A stretch of 64,000 nucleotides of DNA. Origin: a virus. Positions within the stretch are counted from its first letter, which is position 1. Every line of letters starts with the position of its first letter. The stretch is from positions 1 to 64,000 of the IMG/VR virus record IMGVR_UViG_3300043811_000021. One strand, 5' to 3'. A program made the translations under genes and the position numbers. Under the pieces are notes generated by a model, which was not told the DNA's origin, did not search any database, and saw only the letters and a list, made by a program, of their open reading frames with translations. Shown piece after piece: positions 49,585-64,000 of the stretch.

Positions 49585-49626
49585 AGGGGAATTATATCAT
49601 GGAAGGCGCAGGATAATAGAAGAATA

Positions 49627-49701
49627 TGGAGCGAATGACCGGGCACGATCCGGTGACTTTTGGGTGGAAGCCAAATATGTTACCAACTACACCACATTCG
49701 C
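49627..49701 (-). tRNA. tRNA-Gly(TCC)
   Basis: Cloverleaf, CT-TCC-AC loop, U73, encoded CCA; atypical T-loop ATCGTGC. Confidence 0.85.
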
Positions 49702-49706
49702 TAAAC

Positions 49707-49781
49707 TGGTCCCGGTGATCCCTTACGAGGGGACGGCCTCCGTCTTATCAGGACGGCGTTCTTCATCTGAACTACACCGGG
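49707..49781 (-). tRNA. tRNA-Ile(GAT)
   Basis: CCGTC-CTGATAA-GACGG, CCA; T-loop CTCGTAA. Confidence 0.85.
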
Positions 49782-49787
49782 TTAAAA

Positions 49788-49861
49788 TGGAGCCTACGCG
49801 GAGAGTTTAACTCCGGTCTCTATCGTACCAGGATAGGGCACTGTCGCTATGCTACGTAGGC
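49788..49861 (-). tRNA. tRNA-Thr(GGT)
   Basis: CTATC-CTGGTAC-GATAG, GCCTACG/CGTAGGC, CCA. Confidence 0.85.
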
Positions 49862-49927
49862 ATTGAACATCCCAGAGTCACAGGTATTTCATCTGTGCGT
49901 TGTAACCTGCTTCCCCTACTTTCAATC

Positions 49928-50362
49928 TCACTCTGAAACAGAGAACGTTTTGTAATTAACCGCCATCCTCGCCTGTGAACGATAGTTCTTATTTTTTCTA
50001 TCCTCAATCCTAAGTGTTATAGCACTTTTCTTGGGCGGCATCTCTTCCCATGGTATGTAATAGCATTCCTTTGTTTCTGGACAATATACCGCTAATATAT
50101 CAAAATCACCATCAACATATTTCATTCTATGACTACCTTTGGAATTTGCCCAAGTTGATTCTATATCTATTTTCAAAGTACCGTCGCGCACCGAGCAATA
50201 TTTCACCTGAACAGTCCATAATTTATTTGAACGATATACTACAAGATCGAATGGAGCGTGTTCCGTTTGAGGTACACAGATTATGAAGCCTTGTTCGCAA
50301 AGATCAGCCTGAACTTTCAACACCGCTAGGTCACCCTTTTCTTTTGTGTGATGACTCTTCAT
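49928..50362 (-). CDS. Group I intron-associated-type PD-(D/E)XK endonuclease (I-Ssp6803I-like), free-standing
   Basis: TK.KGD.A...V...L...G..I..P..EH.PFDLV...VQVKY, D.D..AVYCP.T..CY.IP. Confidence 0.8.
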   Translation of the reverse strand: MKSHHTKEKGDLAVLKVQADLCEQGFIICVPQTEHAPFDLVVYRSNKLWTVQVKYCSVRDGTLKIDIESTWANSKGSHRMKYVDGDFDILAVYCPETKECYYIPWEEMPPKKSAITLRIEDRKNKNYRSQARMAVNYKTFSVSE

Positions 50363-50536
50363 TTATCTATTATAACACTAAAAGAAGCACTCCGAACTTG
50401 GTTGCTCAGGTTAACGCTTTTCCTGGCTGTTAGGCATTACGACCATTTGCAACTGGTAGCCTAAACACTCTCAACTCGCCTACCTGTATTTTCCTGTGGC
50501 CTACAGGTGTTTCGGTAGGTCTGTATCGAGCTAACT

Positions 50537-50614
50537 TGGTGCGCCGTGAGAGGCTCGAACTCCCGACCTAGTGCTTGTAAGGCACCCGCTCTGAACCAAC
50601 TGAGCTAACAGCGC
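50537..50614 (-). tRNA. tRNA-Val(TAC)
   Basis: Canonical cloverleaf, CCA. Confidence 0.92.
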
Positions 50615-50619
50615 AAAAA

Positions 50620-50695
50620 TGGACGGTCTATCGGAAGTTGAATCCGAATTTCTACCTTCGGAGGGTAGCGCCCTTATCCGTTGGACCATAGACCG
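50620..50695 (-). tRNA. tRNA-Arg(CCG)
   Basis: CTACC-CTCCGAA-GGTAG, CCA. Confidence 0.88.
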
Positions 50696-50701
50696 AAAAT
50701 A

Positions 50702-50780
50702 TGGTGCCGCTGGCCAGAATCGAACTGGCGTCAATCCGTCTACTCGAAGCCCGCTTAGGAGGCGGGTGAGGTACAGCGGC
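50702..50780 (-). tRNA. Non-canonical D-armless tRNA-like gene, anticodon CCT (Arg)
   Basis: Perfect acceptor, anticodon and T arms plus CCA; only 7 nt between acceptor and anticodon stems; 20 nt variable region. Confidence 0.7.
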
Positions 50781-50784
50781 AAGA

Positions 50785-50861
50785 TGGTGCTGACGGCTGG
50801 GATCGAACCAGCGGCATCTTGCTTAGAAGGCAAGCACTCTATCCGTCTGAGTTACGTCAGC
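50785..50861 (-). tRNA. tRNA-Arg(TCT)
   Basis: Canonical cloverleaf, CCA. Confidence 0.92.
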
Positions 50862-50865
50862 AATC

Positions 50866-50951
50866 TGGTGGAGCCGGTGGGACTTGAACCCACATTGGGT
50901 TTCCCCGCTCATTAAAAGTGAGGTCTCTGCATCCAATTCGAGTACGACTCC
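50866..50951 (-). tRNA. tRNA-Lys(TTT) with long variable arm
   Basis: CT-TTT-AA loop; variable hairpin GGG-GAAA-CCC; CCA. Confidence 0.8.
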
Positions 50952-50959
50952 ATTAAACT

Positions 50960-51036
50960 TGGTGAGCGCGGCTGGATTTGAACCAGCGTCAGCCTGCTTA
51001 AGAGGCAGGTATAATCAGCCGCTATACGACGCGCTC
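50960..51036 (-). tRNA. tRNA-Lys(CTT)
   Basis: CCTGC-CTCTTAA-GCAGG, CCA. Confidence 0.9.
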
Positions 51037-51037
51037 A

Positions 51038-51117
51038 TGGTAGACGTGACGGGTGTCGAACCCGCGTACTCCCGCTTATAAGGCAGGTGCTAAAACCAAT
51101 CCATCAGCTACACGTCT
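51038..51117 (-). tRNA. tRNA-Ile(TAT)
   Basis: CCTGC-CTTATAA-GCGGG, enlarged D-loop, CCA. Confidence 0.85.
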
Positions 51118-51126
51118 GTAAAACTA

Positions 51127-51202
51127 TGGTGCCAGTGGCTCAACTCGAATGAGCTACCTCCGACTTATGAGATCGGCGCATATCCACTTCTGCTTCACTG
51201 GC
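51127..51202 (-). tRNA. tRNA with CAT anticodon (elongator Met or Ile2)
   Basis: CCGAT-CTCATAA-GTCGG, G1:C72, CCA. Confidence 0.85.
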
Positions 51203-51207
51203 GAAAC

Positions 51208-51278
51208 TGGCAGGGGATAGGAGAATCGAACTCCTCACGGCGAGTTTTGGAGACTCGCCTAATCCCAGATCATCCCCT
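51208..51278 (-). tRNA. tRNA-Trp(CCA) with reduced D-arm
   Basis: CT-CCA-AA loop, G73, CCA; 71 nt. Confidence 0.82.
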
Positions 51279-51304
51279 GTATATCCTGCGAATTTTCAAT
51301 GATC

Positions 51305-51333
51305 AAAAAGAAGCCCTTCCACTGAGGAAGGGC
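51305..51333 (-). terminator. Attenuator terminator of tRNA block A
   Basis: GCCCTTCC-TCAGT-GGAAGGGC-TTCTTTTT. Confidence 0.85.
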
Positions 51334-51359
51334 CGGTGCTACAACACTTGCACAGACCC

Positions 51360-51431
51360 CTAAGACACGATCCCCCATCCCATCCGCTTGATGGTTATGG
51401 TTCTGACGTGTTTGCTAGTGGTCTGCATCAT
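51360..51431 (-). CDS. Leader peptide A (MMQTTSKHVRTITIKRMGWGIVS)
   Basis: AAAGGA RBS; codons match anticodons of the 12 downstream tRNAs; stop codon overlaps the antiterminator arm. Confidence 0.85.
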   Translation of the reverse strand: MMQTTSKHVRTITIKRMGWGIVS

Positions 51432-51526
51432 TTTTCCTTTGTCGAGGGGTTTCCCGCTCTAGCCCTATTATATCCCAGGCTGGGGTTTAGCTCTGCATAA
51501 TCCATCTACAGAGTACCGCAAGTCGA

Positions 51527-51856
51527 TTAGGAATGCAAGCCCAAAAATCGATAAGTCAACAATAAAGTTGTCAGATGGATCGCCTGATCGAACCCAATCA
51601 GCACAAAGAACCAGTGACGCTTCTCTTTCTTCCACAAATACGAAGTCCCCCTAGAGGTAATGTAATCGGTCGCGAAATGGAAGACAAACGTAATTATAGC
51701 GAACTTCCAGCCGAAAGCCAAGAATGGAAGAGAGTAAACAGAGACGTGAATTCCAAGCCATGTGTTTCTCGTTGACTTATTGAGAGCCATATTATCAGTT
51801 TGCAGAACAAAATCTGAGATGAAGTGAATCCAGATCAACGCTAAGATGTAGAGCAT
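51527..51856 (-). CDS. DUF3307 family membrane protein
   Basis: HF..DF.LQ...MA..K, H...Y, HF.TD, DQ..H. Confidence 0.85.
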
Positions 51857-52548
51857 GATTTCTCCTAGTGGTCACGAAATATACTGCAATCAGAATAATC
51901 CGTCCCCTCTATCTTGCCTTTCTCAAATTGATTTCTTCCGTACTTTCTACAAAAGTGAGCCAGCTCTATCCACTCTTTATCTTCAAGTGAAGTAGAAGGA
52001 AGAGAGATTTTGATATTTTTTAATAATTCCTTAAATTTTTCGTCTTCTTTTTCGAGAAGTTCTCTTTTATGCTGGCCAATCTGGTCGTACATGGTAACAT
52101 TTCCAATCCAATTCTGTGCCTCCTCTGCACTGAATCCAAAAGATTCAACACAAGTTCTTTCTGCCTCTCTTTTCCATTCGTACATAATAATCCTCAATCG
52201 TTTATCGTCTTCCGTTTTTCCAGTCTTTTAACCAATGAATCAACAACAGACTCTAGGCTGTGTCGATCTCCAAAGTGACCTACTCCATCTACTACATCAG
52301 AACATATCTCTATTACCTCTTGTAGTCGCAGGCTTTCCAAATCTTTTCCTAATCGATCCCCTTTCATTATTATCTCTAGTCTTTCAAGAACGGAAGTTAA
52401 AACTTCCTGTCCTTTTATTACGGCTGTTAGAAAGTCATCTGCGAACACCATGTTCTCAATAAGAATAGTTCCATCGGAAAACCATTCTGCATTGTTCTTA
52501 ATCTTTATTCTGTAGCATCTCATCGTTGTCTCCTATGCATATTATAGC

Positions 52549-52583
52549 AAAAAAATAGGGGAGAACAATATTCCGCTCTCCCC
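52549..52583 (-). terminator. Intrinsic terminator of the TROVE/VWA operon
   Basis: GGGGAGAGC...GTTCTCCCC followed by TATTTTTTT. Confidence 0.7.
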
Positions 52584-52603
52584 GCTCACAAAATGGTTAA
52601 AGG

Positions 52604-52906
52604 TTAAACCGCCAGTGCTTCCAAAGCAGCCAGTTCCTTTTCCAGTTCGCTCTTCTTCTGGGCAGGAGTCTTGAGAGAGTCAATCCGTGCTGTCAGTTCA
52701 CGCTTACGTGCAGCGATCTTGTCAGAGTTACGAGATGTGATCTCCCGGCGAATTGCTTTCAGTTGCGAATCAATGAACTCAGGCTCTTCGATCTGTAATG
52801 CCTCGTATTCGGCACGGAGAGACTTTCCGAAGGCCAGTCCAGCAACCAACTCGTCAATGTCAGTTACGCGGTCAGTGTTGAATGTCTTGAATGTTTGAAG
52901 ATTCAT
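52604..52906 (-). CDS. Small coiled-coil protein coupled to the TROVE/VWA gene
   Basis: ATGA overlap with upstream stop; helical heptad pattern. Confidence 0.75.
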   Translation of the reverse strand: MNLQTFKTFNTDRVTDIDELVAGLAFGKSLRAEYEALQIEEPEFIDSQLKAIRREITSRNSDKIAARKRELTARIDSLKTPAQKKSELEKELAALEALAV

Positions 52907-54411
52907 GCTGTTACCAGTTTACCTTTCTGTGCCCCCTTGAGCACTGAGTTGAGAGTTAAAAGCGGAGTGGCCAGGATTTCATCCACAAGTCCGTAGGTTT
53001 TCGTTCTCATAGTCTGCGCCAAATTTGGGATTGAGTAGTAATCCGTTCCGCCCCTTATGTCAAATGTCTGCATTTCCAGTCCAGCACTCTGCATCTTCGT
53101 TGTGAGGCTGTTAGGCTCACCTTCAACGTGGTACAGATATACTGGAACGTCACGGTCAGCGAACGCCACATATTTCTTGTAAACGTCCGTAAAGTACGGT
53201 GCGCTATGTTCCGCGCCGTCAGAAACAATTGCAATTCCATCAACCGAAATCTTCTCCTGAAGCATCCTGTTCAAACCGCAGCCGATGGATGTTCCACCGT
53301 TGGCTGTGATGTGCCTTGTTGCCTTTTGGATTGAGTCCAGAGGCAATCCTGTTACATCAATAGTCATCGGGTTAGTGTCAAAGAATACAAGGTAGACCTT
53401 TCCTCTGCAAATCTTAGCCAACGTAGCAGCAACGTGACGGGATGCCTCAATGGAACGAGACATACTACCCGACTTGTCTGCCAAAACGAGCCAATCGCCT
53501 TCTGGTCCTCCCATTGCCGCAATCTGCTTATCTTGTAGTCCCTGCAACTTCTCTTTCAGAACAGAGTCAGTCACAGACTCAGCAGCTTTGGTCGTCTTCA
53601 GCGTATTCTTCTTAGACGTTGCAGCCTTTGCTAATGCCTGATCAAATGCCCCGCGAAGTGCAGGATTCGTCTTCAGTCCCAACTTCTCCAACATCTTCAC
53701 GTTGGTAGTCAACTCAGTCGCAGACATTGCTCCAATCAACGCCAGAACCAAATCAGGTTCCTTCGCCTTTGCTCCCAATGCTCCCATCGCGATAAGGAAA
53801 GGAATCCGGTAACGCATGATCGATCCTGCCGCTTCCGTAGGAGTCATGTTCTTGAGGTTTGCTACTACCTCAAATACCGATCCCTTGGGAAGTGGTAATT
53901 TATTACCCTTTTCATCCTTACCGAAAAGAACCGCACGAACACGGTCTGCCTTTGTCTCAGGGCGAACATGGCCAAGAGCATACAACTCCCTCAGCGTCTT
54001 CCTATGCTGAATTGCCAGATGATCCCAGCCCTTATCCTGCTCCTTCTCATGCAGGTAATCGCCAATCAACCGGCGCAAAGGAAGCATCTTACCTGCTGGA
54101 CGAATCTCACGCGCAAAATGGAAAGCGCGAAGCAACTCACGCGGTCCAAGCAATGCTAAATGAGCATACGCATTATCCAATAACTCCGAGTCATTCTCAT
54201 ATGCCAAGCCGATAACTGGAAGAGCAACCTTGCTGTCCCTTATCTGCCCATGAGTTCTATCCCAGGAAATCAAATGCGCAAAGAATTCGCCTTCCTGTTT
54301 TACTGCCTGTTGTCCGATAGGAACGTATTCCTTCAGCGCACCGTGAGGACTTTTTGAAAGTTCACTCACAATTCTTTGTTTTGTCAATCCCTGTTCTGCC
54401 ATAGTATTCAT
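52903..54411 (-). CDS. Ro60/TROVE-like protein with C-terminal VWA (MIDAS) domain
   Basis: DKSGSMS (DxSxS), GGTSIG, IVSDG; basic helical N-terminal ~300 aa. VWA is certain; Ro60/TROVE is inferred from size, architecture and adjacent RNAs. Confidence 0.7.
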   Translation of the reverse strand: MNTMAEQGLTKQRIVSELSKSPHGALKEYVPIGQQAVKQEGEFFAHLISWDRTHGQIRDSKVALPVIGLAYENDSELLDNAYAHLALLGPRELLRAFHFAREIRPAGKMLPLRRLIGDYLHEKEQDKGWDHLAIQHRKTLRELYALGHVRPETKADRVRAVLFGKDEKGNKLPLPKGSVFEVVANLKNMTPTEAAGSIMRYRIPFLIAMGALGAKAKEPDLVLALIGAMSATELTTNVKMLEKLGLKTNPALRGAFDQALAKAATSKKNTLKTTKAAESVTDSVLKEKLQGLQDKQIAAMGGPEGDWLVLADKSGSMSRSIEASRHVAATLAKICRGKVYLVFFDTNPMTIDVTGLPLDSIQKATRHITANGGTSIGCGLNRMLQEKISVDGIAIVSDGAEHSAPYFTDVYKKYVAFADRDVPVYLYHVEGEPNSLTTKMQSAGLEMQTFDIRGGTDYYSIPNLAQTMRTKTYGLVDEILATPLLTLNSVLKGAQKGKLVTA

Positions 54412-54426
54412 CCTCCCGGAGATGTG

Positions 54427-54963
54427 TTATGGAAGTTTACGTTTTGCAAGGTAGTCAACAAAGAAGTTATAATCTAACTTCCGCTCCTTACACCAGTCAT
54501 GCGGGTCCATCGAACCTTTCCTCTTATTGCAATTTTTACAGGCAGAAAGGAAATTTGATGTGTCATTCGCCCCACCCGTTTCAAGTGGCTGGAAGTGATC
54601 GATTGACAGTGGAGATACACCCATTTTCACGCCGCAGTACATGCATTTGCATCCGTCAGCGACCCATACTTTCTGCTGCACCGCTCCAGAAATTTCATAG
54701 CGTACCTTGCGATGAAACGCTTTCGCTGGCATCACTAAAATCTCAGGATTATCTGTACGAGCTAAAAAGTCCGTCCACTCTTCGAGAGAAAGACGTTCAG
54801 TAGAGCATTCGCTAATATCTGGGCAATCTGGCAGCATGAGGATAGCCATTGCACCTTCTCCCCCCACTACCAACCCCTCAATTTTAAGGATATTACCCAA
54901 GTCGCCATAAACCGCTGGACGGTGGCGAAGCTCAAGCATATAAAAACGATCTCCGCTAGCCAT
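54427..54963 (-). CDS. HNH nuclease with N-terminal extension
   Basis: CMYCG...IDH..P...GG.N...N...AC..CN.RKG. Confidence 0.85.
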   Translation of the reverse strand: MASGDRFYMLELRHRPAVYGDLGNILKIEGLVVGGEGAMAILMLPDCPDISECSTERLSLEEWTDFLARTDNPEILVMPAKAFHRKVRYEISGAVQQKVWVADGCKCMYCGVKMGVSPLSIDHFQPLETGGANDTSNFLSACKNCNKRKGSMDPHDWCKERKLDYNFFVDYLAKRKLP

Positions 54964-54992
54964 ATTATCCTCTCCCAAGGCACAAAAAATAC

Positions 54993-55158
54993 TGGCTTCG
55001 TGTCGAGTGTGGTTTTGATGTTTTCAAGCAGCCTTGCGGCCCTCGAAACCCCCGCCTCATCATCCCTGCCTCTCGGCAGAATCCCTGACTCAGACGATCA
55101 GGCGGGGGGTTGCAGGTTGCCCTGCAAAACTATCATGTATCCACTCTCAGTGAAGCCA
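54993..55158 (-). ncRNA. Array RNA 1 (Y-RNA-like), multibranched insert
   Basis: TGGCTTC-ACT-GAGAGTGG-ATACAT ... CCACACTC-GACAC-GAAGCCA. Confidence 0.75.
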
Positions 55159-55178
55159 ATCTTGTACTACTTAACTTA

Positions 55179-55295
55179 TGGAGCCGGGTCCAAGAATTGA
55201 ACTTGGATTGTCGATTTATGGAATCGATGCATGTATCCAGAGTTAGTAAGGTTGCCCTTGTGTCAACTTTGGCATTACCGTTTTGCTAACCCGGC
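55179..55295 (-). ncRNA. Array RNA 2: tRNA(CAT)-like body with motif hairpin inserted after the D-arm
   Basis: GCCGGGT/ACCCGGC-T-CCA; TCGAT-TCCATAA-ATCGA; insert CCAAAGTT-GACAC-AAGG-GCAA-CCTT-ACT-AACTCTGG-ATACAT. Confidence 0.75.
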
Positions 55296-55308
55296 TCAAC
55301 TTGTACGG

Positions 55309-55773: not shown

Positions 55774-55781
55774 ATAATACA

Positions 55782-55880
55782 TGGAGGGAATAAATTTCAA
55801 CCCAATGCTGCTCTTTATCCATGTACCCAGGCAAAGTAACGTTTCCGTTGTGTCTTGTCCGGTTCCGTTTTTTGCCCCCC
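55782..55880 (-). ncRNA. Array RNA 3: degenerate tRNA-like body with motif hairpin
   Basis: CCGG-ACAA-GACAC-AACG-GAAA-CGTT-ACT-TTGCCTGG-GTACAT; G-rich 5' end pairs with TTCCCT-CCA. Confidence 0.65.
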
Positions 55881-55887
55881 ACAACTT

Positions 55888-56017
55888 ATTTGGTTAGTGT
55901 CTGTCAGCGAGTGTTGCTGGTTGAAAAAGTAGGGATCGAACCTACGACCTATTCATTTGAAGTGAATTGCTCTACCAGTGAGCTATTTTTCCGTGTACGC
56001 TGCCATGTTAACCAAAT
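55888..56017 (-). ncRNA. Array RNA 4: motif stem enclosing a complete tRNA(TCA)
   Basis: ATTTGGTTA-ACA-TGGCAGCG-TACAC-[tRNA]-...CGCTGACA-GACAC-TAACCAAAT. Confidence 0.75.
55918..55992 (-). tRNA. tRNA with TCA anticodon (would read UGA), nested in array RNA 4
   Basis: GCTC/GAGC D-arm, ATTCA-CTTCAAA-TGAAT, GTAGG-TTCGATC-CCTAC, A-U-rich acceptor with G1-A72 mismatch, ACCA. Confidence 0.75.
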
Positions 56018-56022
56018 CTTAA

Positions 56023-56084
56023 AGGGTTGGTATCGGACTGCGCTGTTCATGTTTACAAAGCATGTAAGCAGTCCCGTCAACCCT
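56023..56084 (-). ncRNA. Array RNA 5 (minimal unit)
   Basis: AGGGTTG-ACG-GGACTGC-TTACAT ... GCAGTCC-GATAC-CAACCCT. Confidence 0.75.
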
Positions 56085-56091
56085 ATCTTAA

Positions 56092-56207
56092 TCCGCTTGT
56101 GTCTTTTGGCTAACCCTTGCGGGCACAAGGCCGTTTTCGAGGCGGCTTCTTTTTCTCCAAATGAAAATGCTGGACTACCAGCACATGTACGCCAAAACGT
56201 AAGCGGA
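56092..56207 (-). ncRNA. Array RNA 6
   Basis: TCCGCTT-ACG-TTTTGGC-GTACAT ... GCCAAAA-GACAC-AAGCGGA. Confidence 0.75.
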
Positions 56208-56380
56208 ATCTTTCATCCCTAACATCAGGAAAACTCAAACTCAGTGATTAGGTAGCCTCACATCAGGTCGCTCACTTCCAGAATCCGGCACAGTTACAAA
56301 CGGGACGACACCCTCACCTAGCTACCATCTTTCCATGCCCTCATTGGTAAAGCTACCTAATCTCTGCATCAACAAAACCA

Positions 56381-56409
56381 ACTCTACTACAATGTCCTGC
56401 GCATTGCAA
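56381..56409 (-). promoter_or_regulatory. Putative promoter of the RNA array / TROVE operon
   Basis: TTGCAA-17 bp-TAGAGT with GCGCAGGACAT box in the spacer, same geometry as 34197-34225. Confidence 0.55.
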
Positions 56410-56455
56410 GCACTTTCTAAAACTATTTTCTACTATTTTTATGCTTGCTAAATTA

Positions 56456-56534
56456 TGGTGGGGCTGGCAGGACTTGAACCTGCTGCCTCCGGTTTCGTAG
56501 ACCGGCGCTCTGAATCCAGATGAGCTACAACCCC
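56456..56534 (-). tRNA. tRNA-Arg(ACG)
   Basis: CCGGT-CTACGAA-ACCGG, CCA. Confidence 0.92.
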
Positions 56535-56546
56535 ACTTACAAAAAA

Positions 56547-56621
56547 TGGTCGGGGAGGGGAATCCTGACATCCCAACCTTTCCGCCCCAAACGGAAAGCT
56601 CTTCCTTTGAGCTACTCCCCG
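56547..56621 (-). tRNA. tRNA-Pro(TGG)
   Basis: C1:G72, TT-TGG-GG loop, CCA; atypical T-loop. Confidence 0.82.
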
Positions 56622-56843
56622 ATAAACTTGGTTACTTCTCGTCCAATAAAACATAGTACTGATCAGGACCATGCTCTGCTGCTGAATTCAGAACATCCAC
56701 CAATTCATCCGCAGTAATGGCATAGTATTTTCTATTTCCATTCACCGGAAAAAACGGGAATAGCGCAGCCATTCGTCTTTCTGATTCAAGATACAGCTTT
56801 TCTGTTTGTACGAAAACCTGTGACATATTACCTCCGATAACAC

Positions 56844-57143
56844 TCACAAATCTCTAACAACAAACTTCCACGGATCGCTCATTACCCAGCCAACAGCTTT
56901 TCCGTTCTCTAACTCATACCAACGATCAACTGGAGATTCAGGTCCAGGCCACGGCTTAGGCCAAGTAGGTCCATCCTCGCCAAAATTAGTATGCGTCCTT
57001 AGCACAGGAATTTTAAGTAAAGAATCTACTTCGTCATTCCTGCCCATTCCATTTTCCGTGTACCCGCATGGCAGAGCGTCAGATAAACTATCAGACCCAT
57101 CATATCCAAAAATCTTTATGAGTAGTTCTTCTTCCTCTGTCAT
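56844..57143 (-). CDS. Hypothetical protein
   Basis: GGAG RBS; W.ELENGKAVGW. Confidence 0.55.
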   Translation of the reverse strand: MTEEEELLIKIFGYDGSDSLSDALPCGYTENGMGRNDEVDSLLKIPVLRTHTNFGEDGPTWPKPWPGPESPVDRWYELENGKAVGWVMSDPWKFVVRDL

Positions 57144-57156
57144 TGCTTCTCCGATA

Positions 57157-57234
57157 TGGTGGACTCGGCCAGATTTGAACTGGCAACACGATGATTTTCA
57201 GTCACCTGCTCTACGCGATTGGAGCTACGAGTCC
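57157..57234 (-). tRNA. tRNA-Phe(GAA)
   Basis: GGTGA-CTGAAAA-TCATC, CCA. Confidence 0.9.
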
Positions 57235-57861
57235 GATTAACGATCTCCAGTCGTTTCTTTCTTTAGATGTCTTCCGACGATGACAATTTGCACATCGCAC
57301 AACACATTTTTCAATCTCTTCCAAAATCCTTTTCATCGAGCATGTTGAGCGTAGGAGCTTAGATATATTGCACTTTTTAACCCCTTTAATATGGTCAAAA
57401 TCCAAGACCATAATGTCCGATTCTCCGCAATCCACACAATGATGTTCCGCCAGATAAGAAACGATGAAAGCCCTTTGTTCCTGTCGTTTAATATCCCTGT
57501 TACGATAAAGGCGCTTCCGTTCTCTTTCCGAGTTATCCCTATAGTGCTGTGCCTTATAAGAACTTTCGCAAATCATGCACCATGCTTGTAGCCCATCTCT
57601 CCGTGCAGCATTTTCTCTAAAATCGCAGCGTGTTTTAACCGTGGTGCATTTGCTGCAATATTTCTCCTTTTCAGGATCGAACTTTGGAAGAAGACTTCTA
57701 CCGTCTTCCGCGATGCACTTCTTGGAGCAAAACCTACGTTTAGCATATTGAGTTTTCCAAAACTCTTTGCCACACCAAGCACATGAATAAGCAAATAGAC
57801 GCCTATTCTTGCCATGAAAAAATTCGATCCTACAATCAACCATGCAATAAGTGTAATACAA
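57211..57861 (-). CDS. HNH homing-endonuclease-like protein
   Basis: Zinc fingers, CVDCG...LDFDH, EI.KC.V.CANCHR. Confidence 0.8.
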   Translation of the reverse strand: MYYTYCMVDCRIEFFHGKNRRLFAYSCAWCGKEFWKTQYAKRRFCSKKCIAEDGRSLLPKFDPEKEKYCSKCTTVKTRCDFRENAARRDGLQAWCMICESSYKAQHYRDNSERERKRLYRNRDIKRQEQRAFIVSYLAEHHCVDCGESDIMVLDFDHIKGVKKCNISKLLRSTCSMKRILEEIEKCVVRCANCHRRKTSKERNDWRSLIGLVAPIA

Positions 57862-57884
57862 ATGACTGAAAACATCAAAACTTT

Positions 57885-57960
57885 TGGTGGACCGGGAGGG
57901 GCTTGAGTCCTCGCGCAGACGCTTGCAGGGCGTCCCATCTCCATCTGAAAGTACCGGCCC
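57885..57960 (-). tRNA. tRNA-Ala(TGC)
   Basis: G3:U70, CC-TGC-AA loop (C33), CCA; atypical D and T loops. Confidence 0.8.
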
Positions 57961-58005
57961 ATTTATTCAACTTCAAACTGTGCCGGGGAATTTCACCCCG
58001 GCGAT

Positions 58006-58093
58006 TGGGGAGATCGGCGGAACTCGAATCCGCGTTGAGGAATTACCCTCCCGGAGCCACAATCCGGTGCCTATCCATCTCGGCCACGACCTC
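58006..58093 (-). tRNA. tRNA-His(GTG) with long variable arm
   Basis: TT-GTG-GC loop, C73, variable hairpin GAGG-GTAATT-CCTC; no encoded G-1. Confidence 0.82.
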
Positions 58094-58096
58094 ACT

Positions 58097-58170
58097 TGGA
58101 GCACTCAGTAGGAATCAAACCCACGTTTTGGCCATACAAAGGGCACGTTCTGTCACTGAACTATGAGTGC
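58097..58170 (-). tRNA. tRNA-Thr(TGT)
   Basis: GCACTCA/TGAGTGC, TT-TGT-AT loop, CCA. Confidence 0.82.
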
Positions 58171-58174
58171 AAAC

Positions 58175-58720
58175 TTACACAAACTGCAAACTCTTCTCAC
58201 CTTCGGAATCAGAGTACAAATACTTACTCCACGCTTCGACTTCCAATCCCATCGAACGAAGGATAATCCTTCCTGTGTGAACCGTGGCTGGGAGAGGCTT
58301 GCGAAGTAGTTTCATTCCAGCCTCTTCCGGCGTACGATCTGCCTTGCGGTGGTTATCTTTGCGGCAGCAAGTTACAAGGTTACTCCAGTCGTTCTTTCCT
58401 CCACGCGACTTAGGAATTACGTGGTCAAGTGTCAAAGAATCACCCTTGAATTCCTCTCCACAATAGCAGCACTTATGCCCATCGCGCAAGTAAATATTTT
58501 TCCTACTCACAACCTGCATCCGAACGGGAATATGTCTATACGTTCTCAACTTGATTACCGATGGTAAAGTTATGCCAGGATAAACTTCAATATCCGTTGG
58601 CATCTCTACCATAGCAGCACCCTTACAAAGTAACGTCAAAGCTCTACGGGCAGCAACTATTCTGATCGGCTCATACGATGCGTTTAATACCAACACCGGC
58701 TTTTTCATCAGGTTGCTCAT
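58175..58720 (-). CDS. HNH endonuclease
   Basis: VLVLNASYEP, PSVI.L, RD...CCYCG, TLDHVIP.SRGG...W.NLV. Confidence 0.9.
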   Translation of the reverse strand: MSNLMKKPVLVLNASYEPIRIVAARRALTLLCKGAAMVEMPTDIEVYPGITLPSVIKLRTYRHIPVRMQVVSRKNIYLRDGHKCCYCGEEFKGDSLTLDHVIPKSRGGKNDWSNLVTCCRKDNHRKADRTPEEAGMKLLRKPLPATVHTGRIILRSMGLEVEAWSKYLYSDSEGEKSLQFV

Positions 58721-58764
58721 ATTCCCTCAATCAATCTCCGCTAGTCTCTCTGAATAATCTTCTG

Positions 58765-58840
58765 TGGAGCCGGTGGAGGCAATCGAAGCCCCGACCTCAT
58801 CTGTACGAAAGATGCGCTCTTCCACCTGAGCTACACCGGC
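58765..58840 (-). tRNA. tRNA-Thr(CGT)
   Basis: CATCT-TTCGTAC-AGATG, CCA. Confidence 0.9.
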
Positions 58841-58935
58841 TTGTCTACGTCTTGCCACTACTATACTATGCACTTTCGTGAAGTCGTGGCTCACTAACAT
58901 CATTCTGTGGGTCATCGGCTTTCCTTTCTTTCAAT

Positions 58936-59010
58936 TGGAGCGGAGTACGGGGTATGATCCCGTGCGCAAAGTGTGGCACACTTCGATGCTTCCAATTACA
59001 TCAACTCCGC
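58936..59010 (-). tRNA. tRNA-Gly(GCC)
   Basis: GCG 5' end, GT-GCC-AC loop, U73, CCA; T-loop ATCATAC. Confidence 0.82.
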
Positions 59011-59018
59011 AAATCTTT

Positions 59019-59093
59019 TGGTTCCAGCGCGAGGTTACGATCCCCGATCCTCGCCTTCAAAGGGCGGTATCCTACCAGTTAGATGACGCTGGA
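59019..59093 (-). tRNA. tRNA-Gln(TTG)
   Basis: U1:A72, CT-TTG-AA loop, CCA; T-loop ATCGTAA. Confidence 0.85.
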
Positions 59094-59102
59094 TCAAAAC
59101 CT

Positions 59103-59177
59103 TGGTTGCCCATCGAGGCGACGATCCCCGAACTACTGGTCCAGAGCCAGCCGTGATACCAATTTCACCAATGGGCA
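59103..59177 (-). tRNA. tRNA-Gln(CTG)
   Basis: U1:A72, CT-CTG-GA loop, CCA; T-loop ATCGTCG. Confidence 0.85.
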
Positions 59178-59293
59178 ACAACTAAACAGTGAGGGCGCGA
59201 CTCTTTCGCTCCGAACGTCTTACTCAAACCCCAAAGGGGTCACTGCGTTACTCGACAGGACTTACTAGACGGCCTGTGTCCCTCTCCAAACTT

Positions 59294-59384
59294 TGGCTCA
59301 CGGAGCAGGACTCGAACCTGCGATGGGAGATGAACTCCTCTGTATTAACAGTACAGCGCCTGCTACCAACTCGGCTATCCGTGA
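59294..59384 (-). tRNA. tRNA-Asn(GTT) with long variable arm
   Basis: U1:A72, G73, CT-GTT-AA loop, variable hairpin GGAG-TTCAT-CTCC. Confidence 0.85.
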
Positions 59385-59401
59385 ACATCCCTAAACAGTT
59401 C

Positions 59402-59429
59402 GAGACCCAAACCTTTCGATCTGGGCCTC
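59402..59429 (-). terminator. Attenuator hairpin of tRNA block B (weak U-tract)
   Basis: GAGGCCCAGATC-GAAA-GGTTTGGGTCTC then GAACTGTTT. Confidence 0.6.
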
Positions 59430-59476
59430 TGCGTTTTACCATTTTTAGTTAGGTAAAAATCTCTCTGAGACCCCGA

Positions 59477-59542
59477 TTATGACCCCCCACCCTGCGGCGT
59501 TTGTGTCGCGGTTGGATTGGCGTTATGGAATCGTGTCTGCAT
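59477..59542 (-). CDS. Leader peptide B (MQTRFHNANPTATQTPQGGGS), probably leaderless
   Basis: ATG 6 nt after the -10 box; codons match the 11 downstream tRNAs. Confidence 0.85.
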   Translation of the reverse strand: MQTRFHNANPTATQTPQGGGS

Positions 59543-59548
59543 GAATTC

Positions 59549-59577
59549 AATGTACCTCAGTCCTAAAAACTTGTCAA
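59549..59577 (-). promoter_or_regulatory. Promoter of tRNA block B
   Basis: TTGACA-17 bp-TACATT. Confidence 0.8.
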
Positions 59578-59585
59578 GAACTTTT

Positions 59586-59861
59586 TTAAGGTAATCCCGC
59601 CAACTGCGTTTCTTGCCTCTGGGCCGGTGGCCAGTTGTCTATTTTTCGCATTAGAGTCCGTATCGCTGCTTCCCGCTTCACGTCCACAATTCCTCTCCCC
59701 TGATCTTTCAGAGAATCAATCAATAAAGAAACCAGCTTTGCCTTTGCCTCAGCTAACGGATACTCTCGTTTAGAAACGTGAATCACTACTTCATGCTTTT
59801 GTGTGTCCTGCGCGAAACAGGTAATCGAGAAAAGAAGAATTGCGATAAGGAATGGTTTCAT
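59586..59861 (-). CDS. Hypothetical secreted protein
   Basis: N-terminal signal peptide. Confidence 0.5.
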   Translation of the reverse strand: MKPFLIAILLFSITCFAQDTQKHEVVIHVSKREYPLAEAKAKLVSLLIDSLKDQGRGIVDVKREAAIRTLMRKIDNWPPAQRQETQLAGLP

Positions 59862-60025
59862 GCGTCATCATGGCATAGTTCATATAAAGACAATATAAGA
59901 AAAGAGAAGGGACATGCTCTTCAGCTTGCCCCTTCGAGCCTCAGCCTACGCAGCTGAGGGAATACGATTTTGGTTAAATCAATTGTAACGCAGTTCCGCA
60001 ATCTGTGCAGAATTTATTTGCAGCC

Positions 60026-60481
60026 TTATTCACTTTTCCGCAAGTCACACACTCCGGTTTCCTGTCCACCGTTCCCGCCGCCCAGCTTGCTCCAATTGCA
60101 ATCCTTGAGGGCTAGGCGAATACGATGCAGCATGAACCATGCCGTCTTCTGTGTGACCTCAATCGCCCGCATGATCTCGTAGGAACTAACGCCGTTCTTG
60201 CAATTCACTACCAGCCAAACGGCGGTCAGCCATTTATCGAGCGGCACAGGAGAATCCTCGAACACACTCTGAGTCTTCACACTGAATTGCTTGTGGCACT
60301 CTTTCGCCATGCACTTCCATATCCGGCGAGAGGACAGATAGGAAACTCTCTTGCTCTCACAGTGCGGGCAGGTGACACCGTTAGGCCAGCGCATCGACGC
60401 AACGAAATCGACACACACGTTCGGGTCTTGGAAATACCGCGTTGCGGCAAGTAAGCTCTTGGGTAGTCTTTCTTTACTCAT
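60026..60481 (-). pseudogene. Truncated IS1595-family transposase
   Basis: RWPNG..CPHC zinc ribbon, FSVK...FEDS..PL.KW, KTAWFMLHRIR; the catalytic domain is missing. Confidence 0.8.
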
Positions 60482-60726
60482 TCTTCACCTCACAGAATCA
60501 AAGAAAACGTTGCGGCTGTCTCCGTAGAGGTGTATTATTTCTACAGAGAGAAGCCCTTATGACTCCCCGCGCAACCATGCGCAGGGAGCCTGAAAGGCCA
60601 TAGACTCCGGTGTTAGAGCACCATTGCCTGTGGGTACTACCGTGTGAAAGTACATTTTGCTTCTCCTCGGTCCTTAAATTAGCTTGCTAGGCTGTGGACC
60701 GAATCCGTTGTACCGAAGCCCCGGCC

Positions 60727-61158
60727 TTAAGCTGGGGTTTCGTTTTTATCCTCCCTTTTATTGGCAATGTAGCGATGCGGATCACGGCCCCGGCCTTGGT
60801 GCGTCCGCGTGATCCGTCCAGCCTGCATGAGAGCGATGAGCGACCACCCTACTGCGTTCATAGCGGCATCAGGTTTTTCTGGGAGACGAACCAGTGCACC
60901 GAGTTGAATTGCCGAAAGGACACTCCGCGAGGTCCACTCGGTTTCCGGCGAAGAATTCACCAATTGCAGAACGACAGACTCCATTTCACTCAGTTCGCCC
61001 CGGACAGTTTTTGCTTGGACAGTGACTAGATTTCCATCTTTGCCAACAAAGACAAAATCGTATCCGGGATAACGCTGCTTGAGGCGTGTCAGATCATCGC
61101 TATCCCTGCGGATTTCCCGCTCAGCGGCTTCGATTGGATTTATGGGAGCTGCGTTCAT
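60727..61158 (-). CDS. Hypothetical protein, possible IS passenger
   Basis: AAGGA RBS; winged-helix-like C-terminus. Confidence 0.5.
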   Translation of the reverse strand: MNAAPINPIEAAEREIRRDSDDLTRLKQRYPGYDFVFVGKDGNLVTVQAKTVRGELSEMESVVLQLVNSSPETEWTSRSVLSAIQLGALVRLPEKPDAAMNAVGWSLIALMQAGRITRTHQGRGRDPHRYIANKREDKNETPA

Positions 61159-61346
61159 TCCTTAATCGTAAACATGGATTCATGGAATGTCAAGCCTTAC
61201 GGTGGAAAGTTTTCATGGAAATCATGGATTATCCTGCGCTTTCCTACGCAACGGCATAGTCCTAAATCACGCCGCTACGAGGGTTGTATCCGCTCGGCTG
61301 TAAACCGAAGTCAACAGATTTTATTTGTATGGTGCGTCAACGATAT

Positions 61347-62009
61347 TTATGCCGATTTAACCTCTTTCAGATGAGCAACCTCTATGTATCGCGAATATCT
61401 ACATACCGCACAGAATTTCGGTCGTCCGCTTTTATCATATATCGTTTCAGCATCTCTACGAATAGATGAACGCGCTGACTGCCAATTAGACCGCCTCGCG
61501 AATAGTTCATCCTTCGTTAATTGTCCGATACTGATTGGTCGCTTCACTCTCTCTGCGCACGATGGGCAGTATTTATGAGATTTATAATCTTCCGTCCTGT
61601 AAAATACGTCCCCACATATTTTGCAGTGGCATCCAGTTCTTAGTTTTTTGCCGACAAATACAGAAGAGCACTTTCGGTCACAGAAGTTTCTTTTATTTAT
61701 CTGAGAGATTTTCTCCCTCGGCTTGAGAATTAGAATCCTTCCACACTCCTTGCATATTTTTGGGTTAGAGTAATAGAGATCAATTGCTTCTTGTCTAGCT
61801 AAAATATTTCCATTTGGTATGTAGTTTGGGTGCTCTTTTTTATATCTCTCTTTATCTCTTTCAGTCAGATATTCCCTGTGATCTTCTCGATACTTCTTCT
61901 GGTATGCGCGGCGGCATTCCATGCATCTTTCTGTCGATATTGGGATTTCATGAAGGCGCTTTTGGCAAAACTTCGTTAATCCTGAAAACATTTCTTGACC
62001 ATGCTTCAT
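61347..62009 (-). pseudogene. C-terminally truncated HNH-like protein
   Basis: Several zinc fingers, then CAVC.Y...IEVAH and a stop before the HNH motif is complete. Confidence 0.6.
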
Positions 62010-62145
62010 ATTCTCTCCTCAGATTGGCGTGGCAGTAGCCTACGCTGATTAAATTCAGTGTTTTCATACCTATTCCTCTTTTTTTTGGTTTTCCTGCTGC
62101 TTAACGTGTTGCAGGAGCCACGGAATAATTTAGTGTAGCACGGAA

Positions 62146-62490
62146 CTACGGAAACCGAGCAATACCAGGAACTTGATCGAATCCAGTCACTCCTTCTCGC
62201 TTCAAAAGCCTCCAACCTCCATCACCTATCCGCATCACTTCTCCACTGTCTATTTCCTCAATCGGATTCGTAACCTTTCTCCAATTCTCGCAAGTGCATT
62301 TGAATTGCATTGAAACAGGAAGAGGACATGGCTCTCCTAGATGCGATTCTTCATTATCACCACAACATCTACGCATATTACATGGAGGGATACATCCACC
62401 AACTAAAACAGCGCCCTGTTTGACAAGACGCTGCGCTTCGGCTCCAGAACGGGCCATTCCAGTTTCCGTTAGTGCCTTAGATAATTTCAT
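62146..62490 (-). CDS. Stand-alone S4 RNA-binding domain protein with Cys-rich insert
   Basis: L.ETG.A.S..EA.RLV.QGAV.V.G motif resembling the TyrRS C-terminal S4 domain; later RKV...E.......RIG. Confidence 0.7.
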   Translation of the reverse strand: MKLSKALTETGMARSGAEAQRLVKQGAVLVGGCIPPCNMRRCCGDNEESHLGEPCPLPVSMQFKCTCENWRKVTNPIEEIDSGEVMRIGDGGWRLLKREGVTGFDQVPGIARFP

Positions 62491-62507
62491 TTCCTCTCCC
62501 TAAAGTA

Positions 62508-62594
62508 TGGTGCAGGCGGTGTGAATCGAACACACTATGCCCCGGAGGACGCTTGATTTACAGTCAAGGAGGCTACCATTAGCCCAACGCCTGC
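62508..62594 (-). tRNA. tRNA-Tyr(GTA)
   Basis: CTTGA-CTGTAAA-TCAAG, long variable arm, CCA. Confidence 0.9.
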
Positions 62595-62600
62595 ACATCA

Positions 62601-62687
62601 TGGAGGAGAGGACGCGAGTCGAACGCGCAGTACCTTTCAGTACGTCTGATTTCAAATCAGGTCGGCTTGCCCATGCCGAACCTCTCC
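62601..62687 (-). tRNA. tRNA-Ser(TGA)
   Basis: TT-TGA-AA loop, long variable arm, CCA. Confidence 0.88.
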
Positions 62688-62692
62688 AAATT

Positions 62693-62780
62693 TGGCGGTA
62701 GCAGGATGAGTTGAACATCCAATAGCTTTCACTATGTCTCGCTTCGAACGAGGTGGGCTTGCCACATGCCCAATGCTACC
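62693..62780 (-). tRNA. tRNA-Ser(CGA)
   Basis: TT-CGA-AG loop, long variable arm, G73, CCA. Confidence 0.88.
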
Positions 62781-62784
62781 AAAA

Positions 62785-62870
62785 TGGCGGAAAGTTAGGT
62801 ACTCGAAACCTACACCTCGCGGTGCTCACCGATTTCCAATCGGGTCCCATCCCTGACGGGTTAACTTTCC
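62785..62870 (-). tRNA. tRNA-Ser(GGA)
   Basis: TT-GGA-AA loop, long variable arm, G73, CCA. Confidence 0.88.
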
Positions 62871-62874
62871 AAAC

Positions 62875-62960
62875 TGGCGGAGCGTACTGAAGTCGAATCA
62901 GTTCAGGCTTTCACCTGTACGGTTTAGCAAACCGCTGCATTTCCGTCCTGCCCACGCTCC
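62875..62960 (-). tRNA. tRNA-Ser(GCT)
   Basis: TT-GCT-AA loop, long variable arm, G73, CCA. Confidence 0.88.
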
Positions 62961-62961
62961 G

Positions 62962-63039
62962 TGGTCCTCGCACCCGGACTCGAACCGGGAATATGACACG
63001 CTTTTTGAGAGCGCCGCTCTTCCATTTCGCCATGCGAGG
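62962..63039 (-). tRNA. tRNA-Leu(CAA), short variable region
   Basis: GCGCT-CTCAAAA-AGCGT, A73, CCA. Confidence 0.85.
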
Positions 63040-63052
63040 TACTTCTAAACTA

Positions 63053-63135
63053 TGGTGCCCGCAGAGGGACTCGAACCCCCACCCCGAAAGACCTGTTCCT
63101 AAGACAGGCGCGGCTGCCAATTACGCCATGCGGGC
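63053..63135 (-). tRNA. tRNA-Leu(TAG)
   Basis: CCTGT-CTTAGGA-ACAGG, CCA. Confidence 0.9.
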
Positions 63136-63147
63136 ACATCTTAAACT

Positions 63148-63222
63148 TGGAGTACCGGGAGAGAGTCGAACTCTCCAAAACTTGCTTTGCAGGCAAGACC
63201 TTAGCCGATTAGGTTCCGGTAC
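63148..63222 (-). tRNA. tRNA-Cys(GCA)
   Basis: CTTGC-CTGCAAA-GCAAG, U73, CCA. Confidence 0.9.
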
Positions 63223-63223
63223 A

Positions 63224-63306
63224 TGGTGCGGGATAAGGGACTCGAACCCTTACGATTTCTCCACGGATTTTAAGTCCGTTATGGCTCCCAGTTTCATCAA
63301 TCCCGC
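63224..63306 (-). tRNA. tRNA-Leu(TAA)
   Basis: ACGGA-CTTAAAA-TCCGT, CCA. Confidence 0.9.
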
Positions 63307-63337
63307 AAAACTAAAAAGCCCCCATTTCTGGAGGCTT
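63307..63337 (-). terminator. Attenuator terminator of tRNA block C
   Basis: AAGCCTCCA-GAAA-TGGGGGCTT-TTTAGTTTT. Confidence 0.85.
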
Positions 63338-63362
63338 CTGGTAAAAATCCTGAACTTGGACT

Positions 63363-63434
63363 CTATCCCATAGCCTCTCTCGCACTCAGACTGAGTGAAT
63401 ACGATGATAAAGATAGGGAGCACAAGTTGTTCAT
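63363..63434 (-). CDS. Leader peptide C (MNNLCSLSLSSYSLSLSAREAMG)
   Basis: 14 consecutive Leu/Cys/Ser/Tyr codons matching the 9 downstream tRNAs. Confidence 0.88.
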   Translation of the reverse strand: MNNLCSLSLSSYSLSLSAREAMG

Positions 63435-63440
63435 GTATTG

Positions 63441-63469
63441 ATCCTCTCATAGATTCAGGATGTTGTCAA
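63441..63469 (-). promoter_or_regulatory. Promoter of tRNA block C
   Basis: TTGACA-17 bp-(TGn)GAGGAT, ATG 6 nt downstream as in block B; GAGG could instead act as an RBS. Confidence 0.6.
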
Positions 63470-63695
63470 GACTTCTTTTTTGTTATTTTCGTTATCCGCA
63501 CATTCTTTAGTTTTGAACGGACAATTCTCGCCAGACGTGCGATCTCCTTGAGTTTTTCTCCCTTCCATATTTCTTCGTCCGCCAAAAGAACTCTTCCGTG
63601 CTTATCTGTAGATAATTTTAATATCGCAGATGTGATGTCAGGTATTGAGTCTTTCTTTGTGTACTTCTTCTTCAGGATTATCGCCATATATCTCC

Positions 63696-63989: not shown

Positions 63990-64000
63990 TTACTCTCCTG

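Follow-up and report, generated by a model that had tools for sequence, protein, structure and literature searches.

Predicted leader-peptide attenuators upstream of three tRNA gene blocks in a phage genome

Introduction

Multivalent leader-peptide attenuators are found in enterobacteria, where the thr leader carries codons for Thr and Ile and the ilvGMEDA leader carries codons for Ile, Leu and Val. The trpL attenuator is the model of the 1:2 / 2:3 / 3:4 switch, and in the pheST operon the leader peptide pheM attenuates expression of phenylalanyl-tRNA synthetase. In all leader-peptide attenuators known to us the regulated genes are those of amino-acid biosynthesis or of aminoacyl-tRNA synthetases, and we know of no case in which tRNA genes are transcribed according to how well those same tRNAs are decoding. 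Here we report on three blocks of tRNA genes, A, B and C, in an uncultured phage (IMG/VR virus record IMGVR_UViG_3300043811_000021), each of which is preceded by a promoter-like site, an ATG-start open reading frame (ORF) of 21-23 codons and a hairpin. The window analysed is the first 64 kb of this 134,145-bp record, which is rated complete by CheckV. We consider it likely that the regions upstream of the blocks are three ribosome-mediated (leader-peptide) transcription attenuators of the trp/ilv type, and that they regulate tRNAs.

Like the thr and ilvGMEDA attenuators, the phage loci have a short ORF with codons for several amino acids between promoter and genes, and a predicted intrinsic terminator with a putative competing antiterminator; sensing would likewise depend on ribosome speed. 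Unlike them, the phage operons would regulate tRNAs and not biosynthetic enzymes, the genes downstream of the leaders being tRNAs and probable homing endonucleases only. The enterobacterial leaders use runs of codons for two or three amino acids, whereas the phage leaders address 9-12 isoacceptors, usually with one or two codons each, and the phage loop would be self-referential in that its product is the thing sensed. As in pheST, attenuation would act on the supply side of decoding and not on amino-acid synthesis; unlike pheST, which has one amino acid and a protein product, the phage leaders have many codons and RNA products. The T-box also switches between terminator and antiterminator according to the tRNA status of a specific codon/anticodon, but it binds uncharged tRNA directly through a specifier loop and a T-box motif, with no ribosome, whereas the phage loci have an ORF. 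No Rfam match to a T-box was obtained in 48000-64000 at E <= 1, and the Thr, His, Leu and Trp leader families of Rfam were absent from the 32 matches obtained there at the same threshold.

The closest inducible tRNA array on record is cellular, the trn operon of Anabaena PCC 7120, presented in two papers as a supernumerary tRNA array that is silent by default and turned on when translation is impaired (PMC8421152, PMC10272220). Its promoter carries direct repeats through which the repressor TrcR exerts control (PMC10272220). In PMC8421152 the strings 'attenuat', 'leader' and 'terminator' have 0 occurrences each. Arrays of the TrcR type are marked by direct repeats that overlie the -10 box and to which an RHH repressor binds. 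The phage blocks resemble the Anabaena operon as supernumerary and, on our reading, inducible tRNA arrays; unlike them, the Anabaena operon is cellular and repressor-controlled. A search of the full-text literature, outside which lie subscription journals and supplements, turned up no tRNA genes, phage or cellular, described as being under leader-peptide attenuation. What we propose is a known mechanism, leader-peptide attenuation, applied to a new gene class, the tRNAs; sequence, statistics and comparison all lend this prediction good support.

If the proposal is true, the loci would exert direct, codon-by-codon feedback on tRNA supply and would be the most multivalent attenuators known, with 9-12 inputs per leader. 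They would offer a testable answer to why and when phages use tRNA arrays, namely on demand and not constitutively, and a possible link to host defences that attack tRNAs. They would also provide compact natural parts for sensors of single-tRNA availability, and the device would be one that a whole family of phage contigs from soil and peat has kept.

Leader codons and tRNA cargo

The features of the window described here lie on the minus strand. Block A (49627..51279) holds 12 tRNA genes: Trp, Met, Ile UAU, Lys CUU, Lys UUU, Arg UCU, Arg CCU, Arg CCG, Val UAC, Thr GGU, Ile GAU and Gly UCC. Block B (55922..59384) also holds 12: Asn, Gln CUG, Gln UUG, Gly GCC, Thr CGU, Thr UGU, His, Ala UGC, Phe, Pro UGG, Arg ACG and tRNA-UCA. 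Block C (62508..63306) holds nine: Leu UAA, Cys, Leu UAG, Leu CAA, Ser GCU, Ser GGA, Ser CGA, Ser UGA and Tyr. Blocks A and B were delimited with ARAGORN, Rfam and a custom finder, and block C with ARAGORN and the custom finder. Their leader ORFs comprise 23 codons in A (51360..51431, MMQTTSKHVRTITIKRMGWGIVS), 21 in B (59477..59542, MQTRFHNANPTATQTPQGGGS) and 23 in C (63363..63434, MNNLCSLSLSSYSLSLSAREAMG). Three minus-strand blocks, each behind an ORF of this length, had been noticed in a first-pass annotation made by a model from the letters of the window, and the three ORFs that it described were confirmed.

The codon-cargo match is real, lies far beyond chance and is confirmed by several controls. 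Codon-to-tRNA matching was scored under strict wobble. Block A reads 17 of the 22 sense codons of leader A, and 11 of its 12 tRNAs are sampled; block B reads 15 of the 20 codons of leader B (11 of 12 tRNAs sampled), and block C reads 13 of the 22 codons of leader C (9 of 9). Set against the blocks of the other operons, the leaders had 1-3 codons decoded and 1-4 tRNAs sampled. Monte Carlo sampling with 2,000,000 draws per leader from genome codon usage, in which block B was scored as 11 tRNAs (14/20), gave probabilities of at least the observed number of decoded codons of 3.5e-6 for A, 9.5e-5 for B and 1.3e-5 for C. When all 1,700 ORFs of 15-40 codons in the genome were paired with the three blocks, leaders A, B and C with their own blocks occupied ranks 1, 2 and 3 of the 5,100 pairs. 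The 250 nt upstream of any one block contain only 2-3 candidate ORFs. The own-block enrichment anticipated at first pass was thus found over random and genome-ORF controls alike. A fourth leader-like ORF at 64176-64235 (fifth, against block A) lies inside a protein-coding region in another frame and was put down to chance.

The match extends to isoacceptors, and the Arg, Thr and Gly codons partition between leaders A and B as the first-pass annotation had it. The Arg codons are AGA and CGG in leader A and CGA in leader B; the Thr codons are ACC and ACT in A, and ACA and ACG plus one ACC in B; the Gly codons are GGA and GGG in A and GGT in B. Leader B has in addition two non-cognate GGG codons close to its stop.

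Related loci were collected with the conserved 502-aa protein encoded between blocks A and B as bait, which returned 11 viral and 37 metagenome contigs. Their proteins are 61-88% identical to the bait, and the same blocks occur in the same order. Among the diverged leaders of these contigs the codon match is seen again in 17 of class A, 9 of class B and 5 of class C. An open leader was found upstream of tRNA-Trp in 18 of 19 distinct regions, of tRNA-Asn in 9 of 9, where insertions shift two leaders 259 and ~570 nt away, and of tRNA-Leu UAA in 5 of 5. A short open leader followed by a terminator upstream of the arrays of related phages, which the first-pass annotation had suggested looking for, is accordingly recurrent. 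The order and length of the leader peptides vary (19-30 sense codons) and their composition is kept; each leader leaves 0-2 of its own tRNAs unsampled when only complete blocks are counted.

Controls for frame, block, isoacceptor and position were run on 27 distinct leaders with complete blocks. The fraction of cognate triplets in frame 0 was 0.67 for A, 0.73 for B and 0.56 for C, against 0.27/0.20, 0.51/0.36 and 0.23/0.14, respectively, in frames +1/+2. Because the cognate enrichment is frame-specific, it points to reading by a ribosome. In the leader-by-block matrix within the same loci the diagonal values were 0.68, 0.73 and 0.56 and the off-diagonal values 0.04-0.17. Thr, Gly and Arg codons of A type and B type stood at 138:21 in A leaders and 21:56 in B leaders; the Fisher value of this isoacceptor partition (1e-19) is descriptive and no true probability, as the sequences are related. 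Cognate codons made up 365 of 471 in the middle of the leaders and 58 of 162 among the first two and last four sense codons. Such central concentration is expected, because a ribosome near the stop would mask the antiterminator anyway.

Changes in cargo among the relatives bear on the first-pass expectation that leader codons covary with cargo, which was borne out in one case and was noisy in another. Relative L010 has an Asp and two Glu tRNAs within block A, and the body of its A leader has three Asp/Glu codons; outside the tails, such codons number one in L011 and none in the remaining 15 distinct A leaders. In L011 tRNA-Thr GGU lies in block B, and ACC occurs three times in the B leader and once in the A leader, a move that is only suggestive as a case of leader codons tracking cargo. 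Relatives L030 and L036 have a second CAU tRNA in place of Ile UAU and leaders that retain ATA, which fits a candidate lysidine-type tRNA-Ile.

Terminators and antiterminators

The first-pass annotation had placed a hairpin just before the first tRNA of each block. For A and C, whose terminators are of canonical form, this agrees with independent listings by a terminator scan tool. Intrinsic terminator A (51304..51334) consists of GGCCCTTCC..GGAAGGGCT and a T-run and is listed by the tool at 51312-51334; intrinsic terminator C (63305..63339), AGAAGCCTCC..GGGGGCTTTT with a T-run, ends at the first tRNA and is listed at 63314-63339. In B a terminator-like hairpin with a 12-bp stem is present at 59402..59429, and at its position relatives L005 and L011 have canonical T-runs. 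A middle hairpin of attenuator B, TTTTTACC..GGTAAAA (59434..59459), was read by eye, and its structure, likewise judged by eye, is retained in relatives despite other sequences.

All 18 A rows and all five C rows show, beginning 22-38 nt past the stop, a GC-rich hairpin with a T-run, and the sequences of the A and C terminator stems vary between loci. Given 17 A sequences, RNAalifold arrived at the terminator as consensus structure; of its 9 pairs, 6 show compensatory double changes. Across the rows examined, the distance from the stop codon to the 5' arm of the hairpin downstream is always 22-48 nt.

Around the stop codon of A, B and C there is a segment whose sequence complements the terminator's 5' arm or the few bases that precede this arm. 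The predicted antiterminator 5' strand of A (51350..51360, GGGGTCTGTGC) begins in the stop codon and pairs with 51330-51339, the 3' strand (GCACCGGCCC), which overlaps the 5' arm of the terminator. The predicted 5' strand of B (59467..59474, GGGGTCTC) lies 3 nt past the stop and pairs with GAGGCCC at 59423-59429. A candidate 5' strand of C (63372..63379, GAGAGGCT) falls within the last six leader codons and pairs with AGCCTC at 63331-63336. For each leader the duplex of its own stop strand with its own terminator arm was compared with duplexes formed with the arms of relatives, and P was obtained by permutation. The competing segment near the stop that had been claimed at first pass stood up in A, where own duplexes stood at -15.7 against -13.4 kcal/mol for others (P = 1e-4), and marginally in B (-13.5 against -11.8 kcal/mol, P = 0.048). 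The same own-versus-other comparison for pairing of the 5' end of the ORF with the post-stop strand gave a weak signal (P = 0.03 for A, 0.08 for C and 0.17 for B); such pairing of the ORF 5' end would explain the conserved non-cognate first codons.

Transcripts cut before the 3' arm of the terminator were folded with a ribosome footprint masked. With the ribosome at codons 1-14 of leader A, 6-8 of the 8 bases of the terminator arm were paired; with the ribosome at the stop 0 of 8 were paired, and with no ribosome 2 of 8. Leader A in these truncated folds resembles trpL, in that without a ribosome the 5' segment of the ORF pairs with the post-stop strand, during a stall a 2:3 antiterminator forms, and with the ribosome at the stop the terminator arm is free. 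Unlike in trpL, the stall codons of the phage leaders extend along the entire ORF and are not confined to segment 1. The mRNAs of B and C, moreover, are probably leaderless, and 1:2 pairing is unsupported for B.

Proposed mechanism

Transcription would start from a sigma-70-type promoter, probably at the start codon itself in B and C, and with a short 5' untranslated region (UTR) and a Shine-Dalgarno sequence in A. A ribosome would then translate the 20-22 sense codons, of which the central 14-17 would be decoded by the downstream tRNAs, with about one codon per isoacceptor. Under prompt decoding the ribosome would reach the stop and cover the strand that lies at, just before or just after it; with this strand covered, the hairpin and T-run would form and RNA polymerase would terminate 22-48 nt past the stop, before the first tRNA. 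If any one codon were slow, its tRNA being scarce, uncharged or damaged, the ribosome would lag, the freed strand would pair with the 5' arm of the terminator, and polymerase would read into the whole block. The new tRNAs would restore fast decoding and so shut the operon off again. Since the sensor would measure the operon's own product, the circuit would act as many-input negative feedback on decoding capacity. As drawn here, the loop cannot distinguish host from phage tRNAs. The first-pass idea that each leader tests about ten tRNAs at once, and that a stall leads to antitermination, agrees with these sequence comparisons, and we infer it from them.

A number of points weigh against this reading. 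Translation, stalling, timing and readthrough are deduced from what can be read in the sequence, namely the ORFs, the agreement of their codons with the cargo, the terminators and the strands complementary to these. Under strict wobble 5 of the 22 codons of leader A, 5 of the 20 of B and 9 of the 22 of C are non-cognate, and Arg CCU in A and tRNA-UCA in B are cargo that is not sampled. The -35 box of promoter A is weak (3 of 6 consensus positions), and the hairpin of B, for which the first-pass claim held as to its presence, has a weak T-run in the studied genome and is not listed by the terminator scan tool. In C the competing segment claimed at first pass was not significant (n = 5, own -13.4 against -11.5 for others, P = 0.13). 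The terminator always forms in full-length minimum-free-energy folds, so the switch would have to be kinetic, as in classical attenuators. The footprint folds were clear for A in the window, partial for B and without change for C; the expected pattern appeared in 13 of 31 distinct leaders, and this is the weakest part of the case. Among the relatives, the 300 nt before tRNA-Trp of L017 contain no leader that could be recognised, and the B leader of L036 has three ACY codons with no Thr GGU tRNA, which makes the relocation of Thr GGU noisy. The leaders of the relatives are homologous, so that their agreement is not independent evidence.

Alternative explanations

The alternative that survives best is nested within the proposed attenuation and does not exclude it. 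The same attenuators might serve as an inducible counter-defence, in which host defences that deplete tRNAs would stall the leader and so call up replacement tRNAs; this is possible, and on present evidence we lean against it. The sensor would respond to the loss of any single isoacceptor, as a nuclease would cause, and unusual anticodon loops or arms are found in the cargo (Lys UUU, Ala UGC and Arg CCU); in the literature on the tRNAs of phage T5, such odd features are said to be of possible help in escaping nucleases. Against this, no tie between the arrays and a defence system was found in the window or in the relatives, the genome has no RtcB-type ligase, and a homeostat that matches tRNA supply to the codon demand of the phage explains the same features equally well.

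The tRNAs of the relatives also speak against a general reserve. A fourth block, D (Met, Asp, Glu and others), is present in relatives and missing from the studied genome. In each of the three distinct loci examined it follows immediately on a promoter-like site and no leader intervenes, which argues that not all phage tRNAs are held in reserve. In the studied genome its place (59600-62500) is taken by ORFs, including one for an IS1595-type transposase zinc-ribbon protein (60026-60481), and because of this replacement no Asp or Glu tRNA is encoded. Only tentatively would we credit these phages with an undescribed class of many-input tRNA sensors, each leader listing the isoacceptors of its operon. 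A single round of translation could then reveal that any one host tRNA had been lost, be it to an anticodon nuclease or to another defence that depletes tRNAs, and the phage would answer with all the replacements at once. Such a device would amount to an inducible counter-defence, and to the first known feedback of tRNA genes by their own decoding.

Positive control of the pyrBI kind, in which a ribosome close behind the polymerase prevents termination, abundant tRNAs raise tRNA synthesis and scarcity turns it off, is very improbable. The short ORF does adjoin the terminator, and starts that are probably leaderless would help to keep ribosome and polymerase close together. The stop, however, is beyond the reach at which a terminating ribosome could block the terminator, lying as it does far upstream of the hairpin, and for this reason we favour trp-type over pyrBI-type logic. 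The strand under a stop-bound ribosome is also complementary to the 5' arm of the terminator, which implies the opposite logic, and positive feedback on tRNA supply would have no obvious use.

The idea that the ORFs are untranslated or encode peptides with functions of their own, their likeness to the cargo being a coincidence or a by-product of base composition, can draw on the abundance of short ORFs in the genome, but it is the least probable of all and appears excluded for practical purposes by the statistics, given the top three ranks, the frame-specific and isoacceptor-level enrichment, a codon composition that is conserved while peptide order is not, and the position of the ORFs between promoter and terminator in every block and in relatives.

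Promoters and 5' regions

The promoter of operon B (59549..59577) has TTGACA and TACATT separated by 17 nt and was found by the scan tool with 10/12 matches. The promoter-like site assigned to operon A (51510..51538) reads TTGCAT, 17 nt, TACTCT; it falls below the threshold of the tool, and the same arrangement is seen upstream of the A leaders of relatives. That assigned to operon C (63441..63469) reads TTGACA, 17 nt, TG-n-GAGGAT, a layout that recurs in L014, L028, L002 and L011. In B and C 6 nt separate the -10 box from the ATG, and in relatives the distance is 5-10 nt, some having a GTG start. From this spacing the B and C transcripts are probably leaderless mRNAs that begin at or beside the start codon.

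Operon A has a 5' untranslated stretch (51432..51509) with a Shine-Dalgarno-like AAGGA directly before the ATG. This stretch of ~75 nt looks like an insertion, as six relatives begin the leader 6 nt past the -10 box. It is common to L002, L012/L013, L022, L028 and L030 and missing in L016, L019, L021, L024, L032 and L036, which look leaderless. A three-codon ATG-CAG-AGC-TAA at 51487-51498 resembles a relic of the original start. No Rfam match that would identify a riboswitch in the 5' UTR of leader A was obtained at E <= 10.

Past the T-run of terminator A and before tRNA-Trp a CTTTGACAA-like motif is conserved in relatives (e.g. L019, L028, L036 and L006); its spacing to -10-like boxes is too short for a sigma-70 promoter. 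A terminator-like hairpin found by the scan tool at 62408..62434, ~70 nt past tRNA-Tyr, is the probable end of operon C.

tRNA gene inventory

All 24 Rfam tRNA matches of the whole genome lie at 49.6-63.3 kb on the minus strand, and two further weak calls outside that region came from relaxed ARAGORN on the whole genome. ARAGORN yielded 26 tRNAs at its default and 29 at the relaxed threshold; Rfam contributed three beyond these, at 51130-51202, 51211-51279 and 56550-56621, which comprise a Trp, a Met and a Pro tRNA. Lowering the ARAGORN thresholds further added noise and still did not recover the atypical tRNAs. A custom finder keyed to four features (encoded CCA end, acceptor stem, T arm and anticodon loop of 7 nt) gave 33 tRNAs in the three minus-strand blocks A (12), B (12) and C (9). 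The anticodons that it shares with ARAGORN all agree except one, the 'Stop tta' of ARAGORN, which we read as Lys UUU because of its 7-nt anticodon loop. The first-pass annotation had counted 32 tRNA genes; its cargo lists were right and its count was one or two short of the 33 plus one tRNA with an insertion, tRNA-UCA having been omitted.

Several structurally odd tRNAs of the window were missed by both ARAGORN and Rfam. Lys UUU (50866-50951) has a long variable arm, Arg CCU (50702-50780) has no normal D arm and a 20-nt variable region, Ala UGC (57885-57960) has G3:U70 and a C that replaces U before the anticodon (loop position 2), and Ile GAU (49707-49781) has an odd T arm; all four have an encoded CCA end. 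Arg tRNAs of a similar kind with no D arm occur in relatives L002 and L016.

The tRNA-UCA (55922-55992) is 71 nt long, has the loop CTTCAAA and would read UGA. Despite the label SeC that ARAGORN gives it, its build is that of an ordinary short-arm tRNA, with G1 and A72 mismatched, and in relatives a small tRNA with other anticodons stands at its position. TGA, TAA and TAG are all still stops in the leaders and ORFs of the region. A further tRNA with anticodon CAU (55182-55295, 114 nt; Rfam tRNA, 46.4 bits) has an insertion of ~40 nt in its 5' half, is located between an HNH gene and the vWA-like gene and has orthologues in many relatives.

Neighbouring genes and other phage records

The region 49500-63600 had no megablast match among 50,697 phage records, and block C, searched by blastn, shared single tRNAs only with 14 records. 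In Streptomyces phage Gilson the tRNAs are scattered among small genes and are not sorted into blocks.

Four HNH endonuclease ORFs (48943-49584, 54427-54978, 55309-55884 and 58175-58720) lie inside or beside the tRNA blocks, and a PD-(D/E)XK endonuclease ORF (49928-50362) lies within block A; these ORFs of the tRNA region are probably homing endonucleases. Insertions of endonuclease ORFs vary between relatives, and in two loci they part leader B from tRNA-Asn.

The conserved 502-aa protein (52903-54411), between blocks A and B, has Pfam VWA matches only below the cut-offs, a match to PHROG 850 'RNA-binding protein' at E = 1.2e-7, and 0 matches in a profile search of PDB sequences. Identity with Ro60/TROVE was considered and set aside, as the Pfam, PHROG and PDB sequence searches gave it no sequence support. 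In relatives L003, L025 and L034 the 502-aa protein is present almost without tRNAs.

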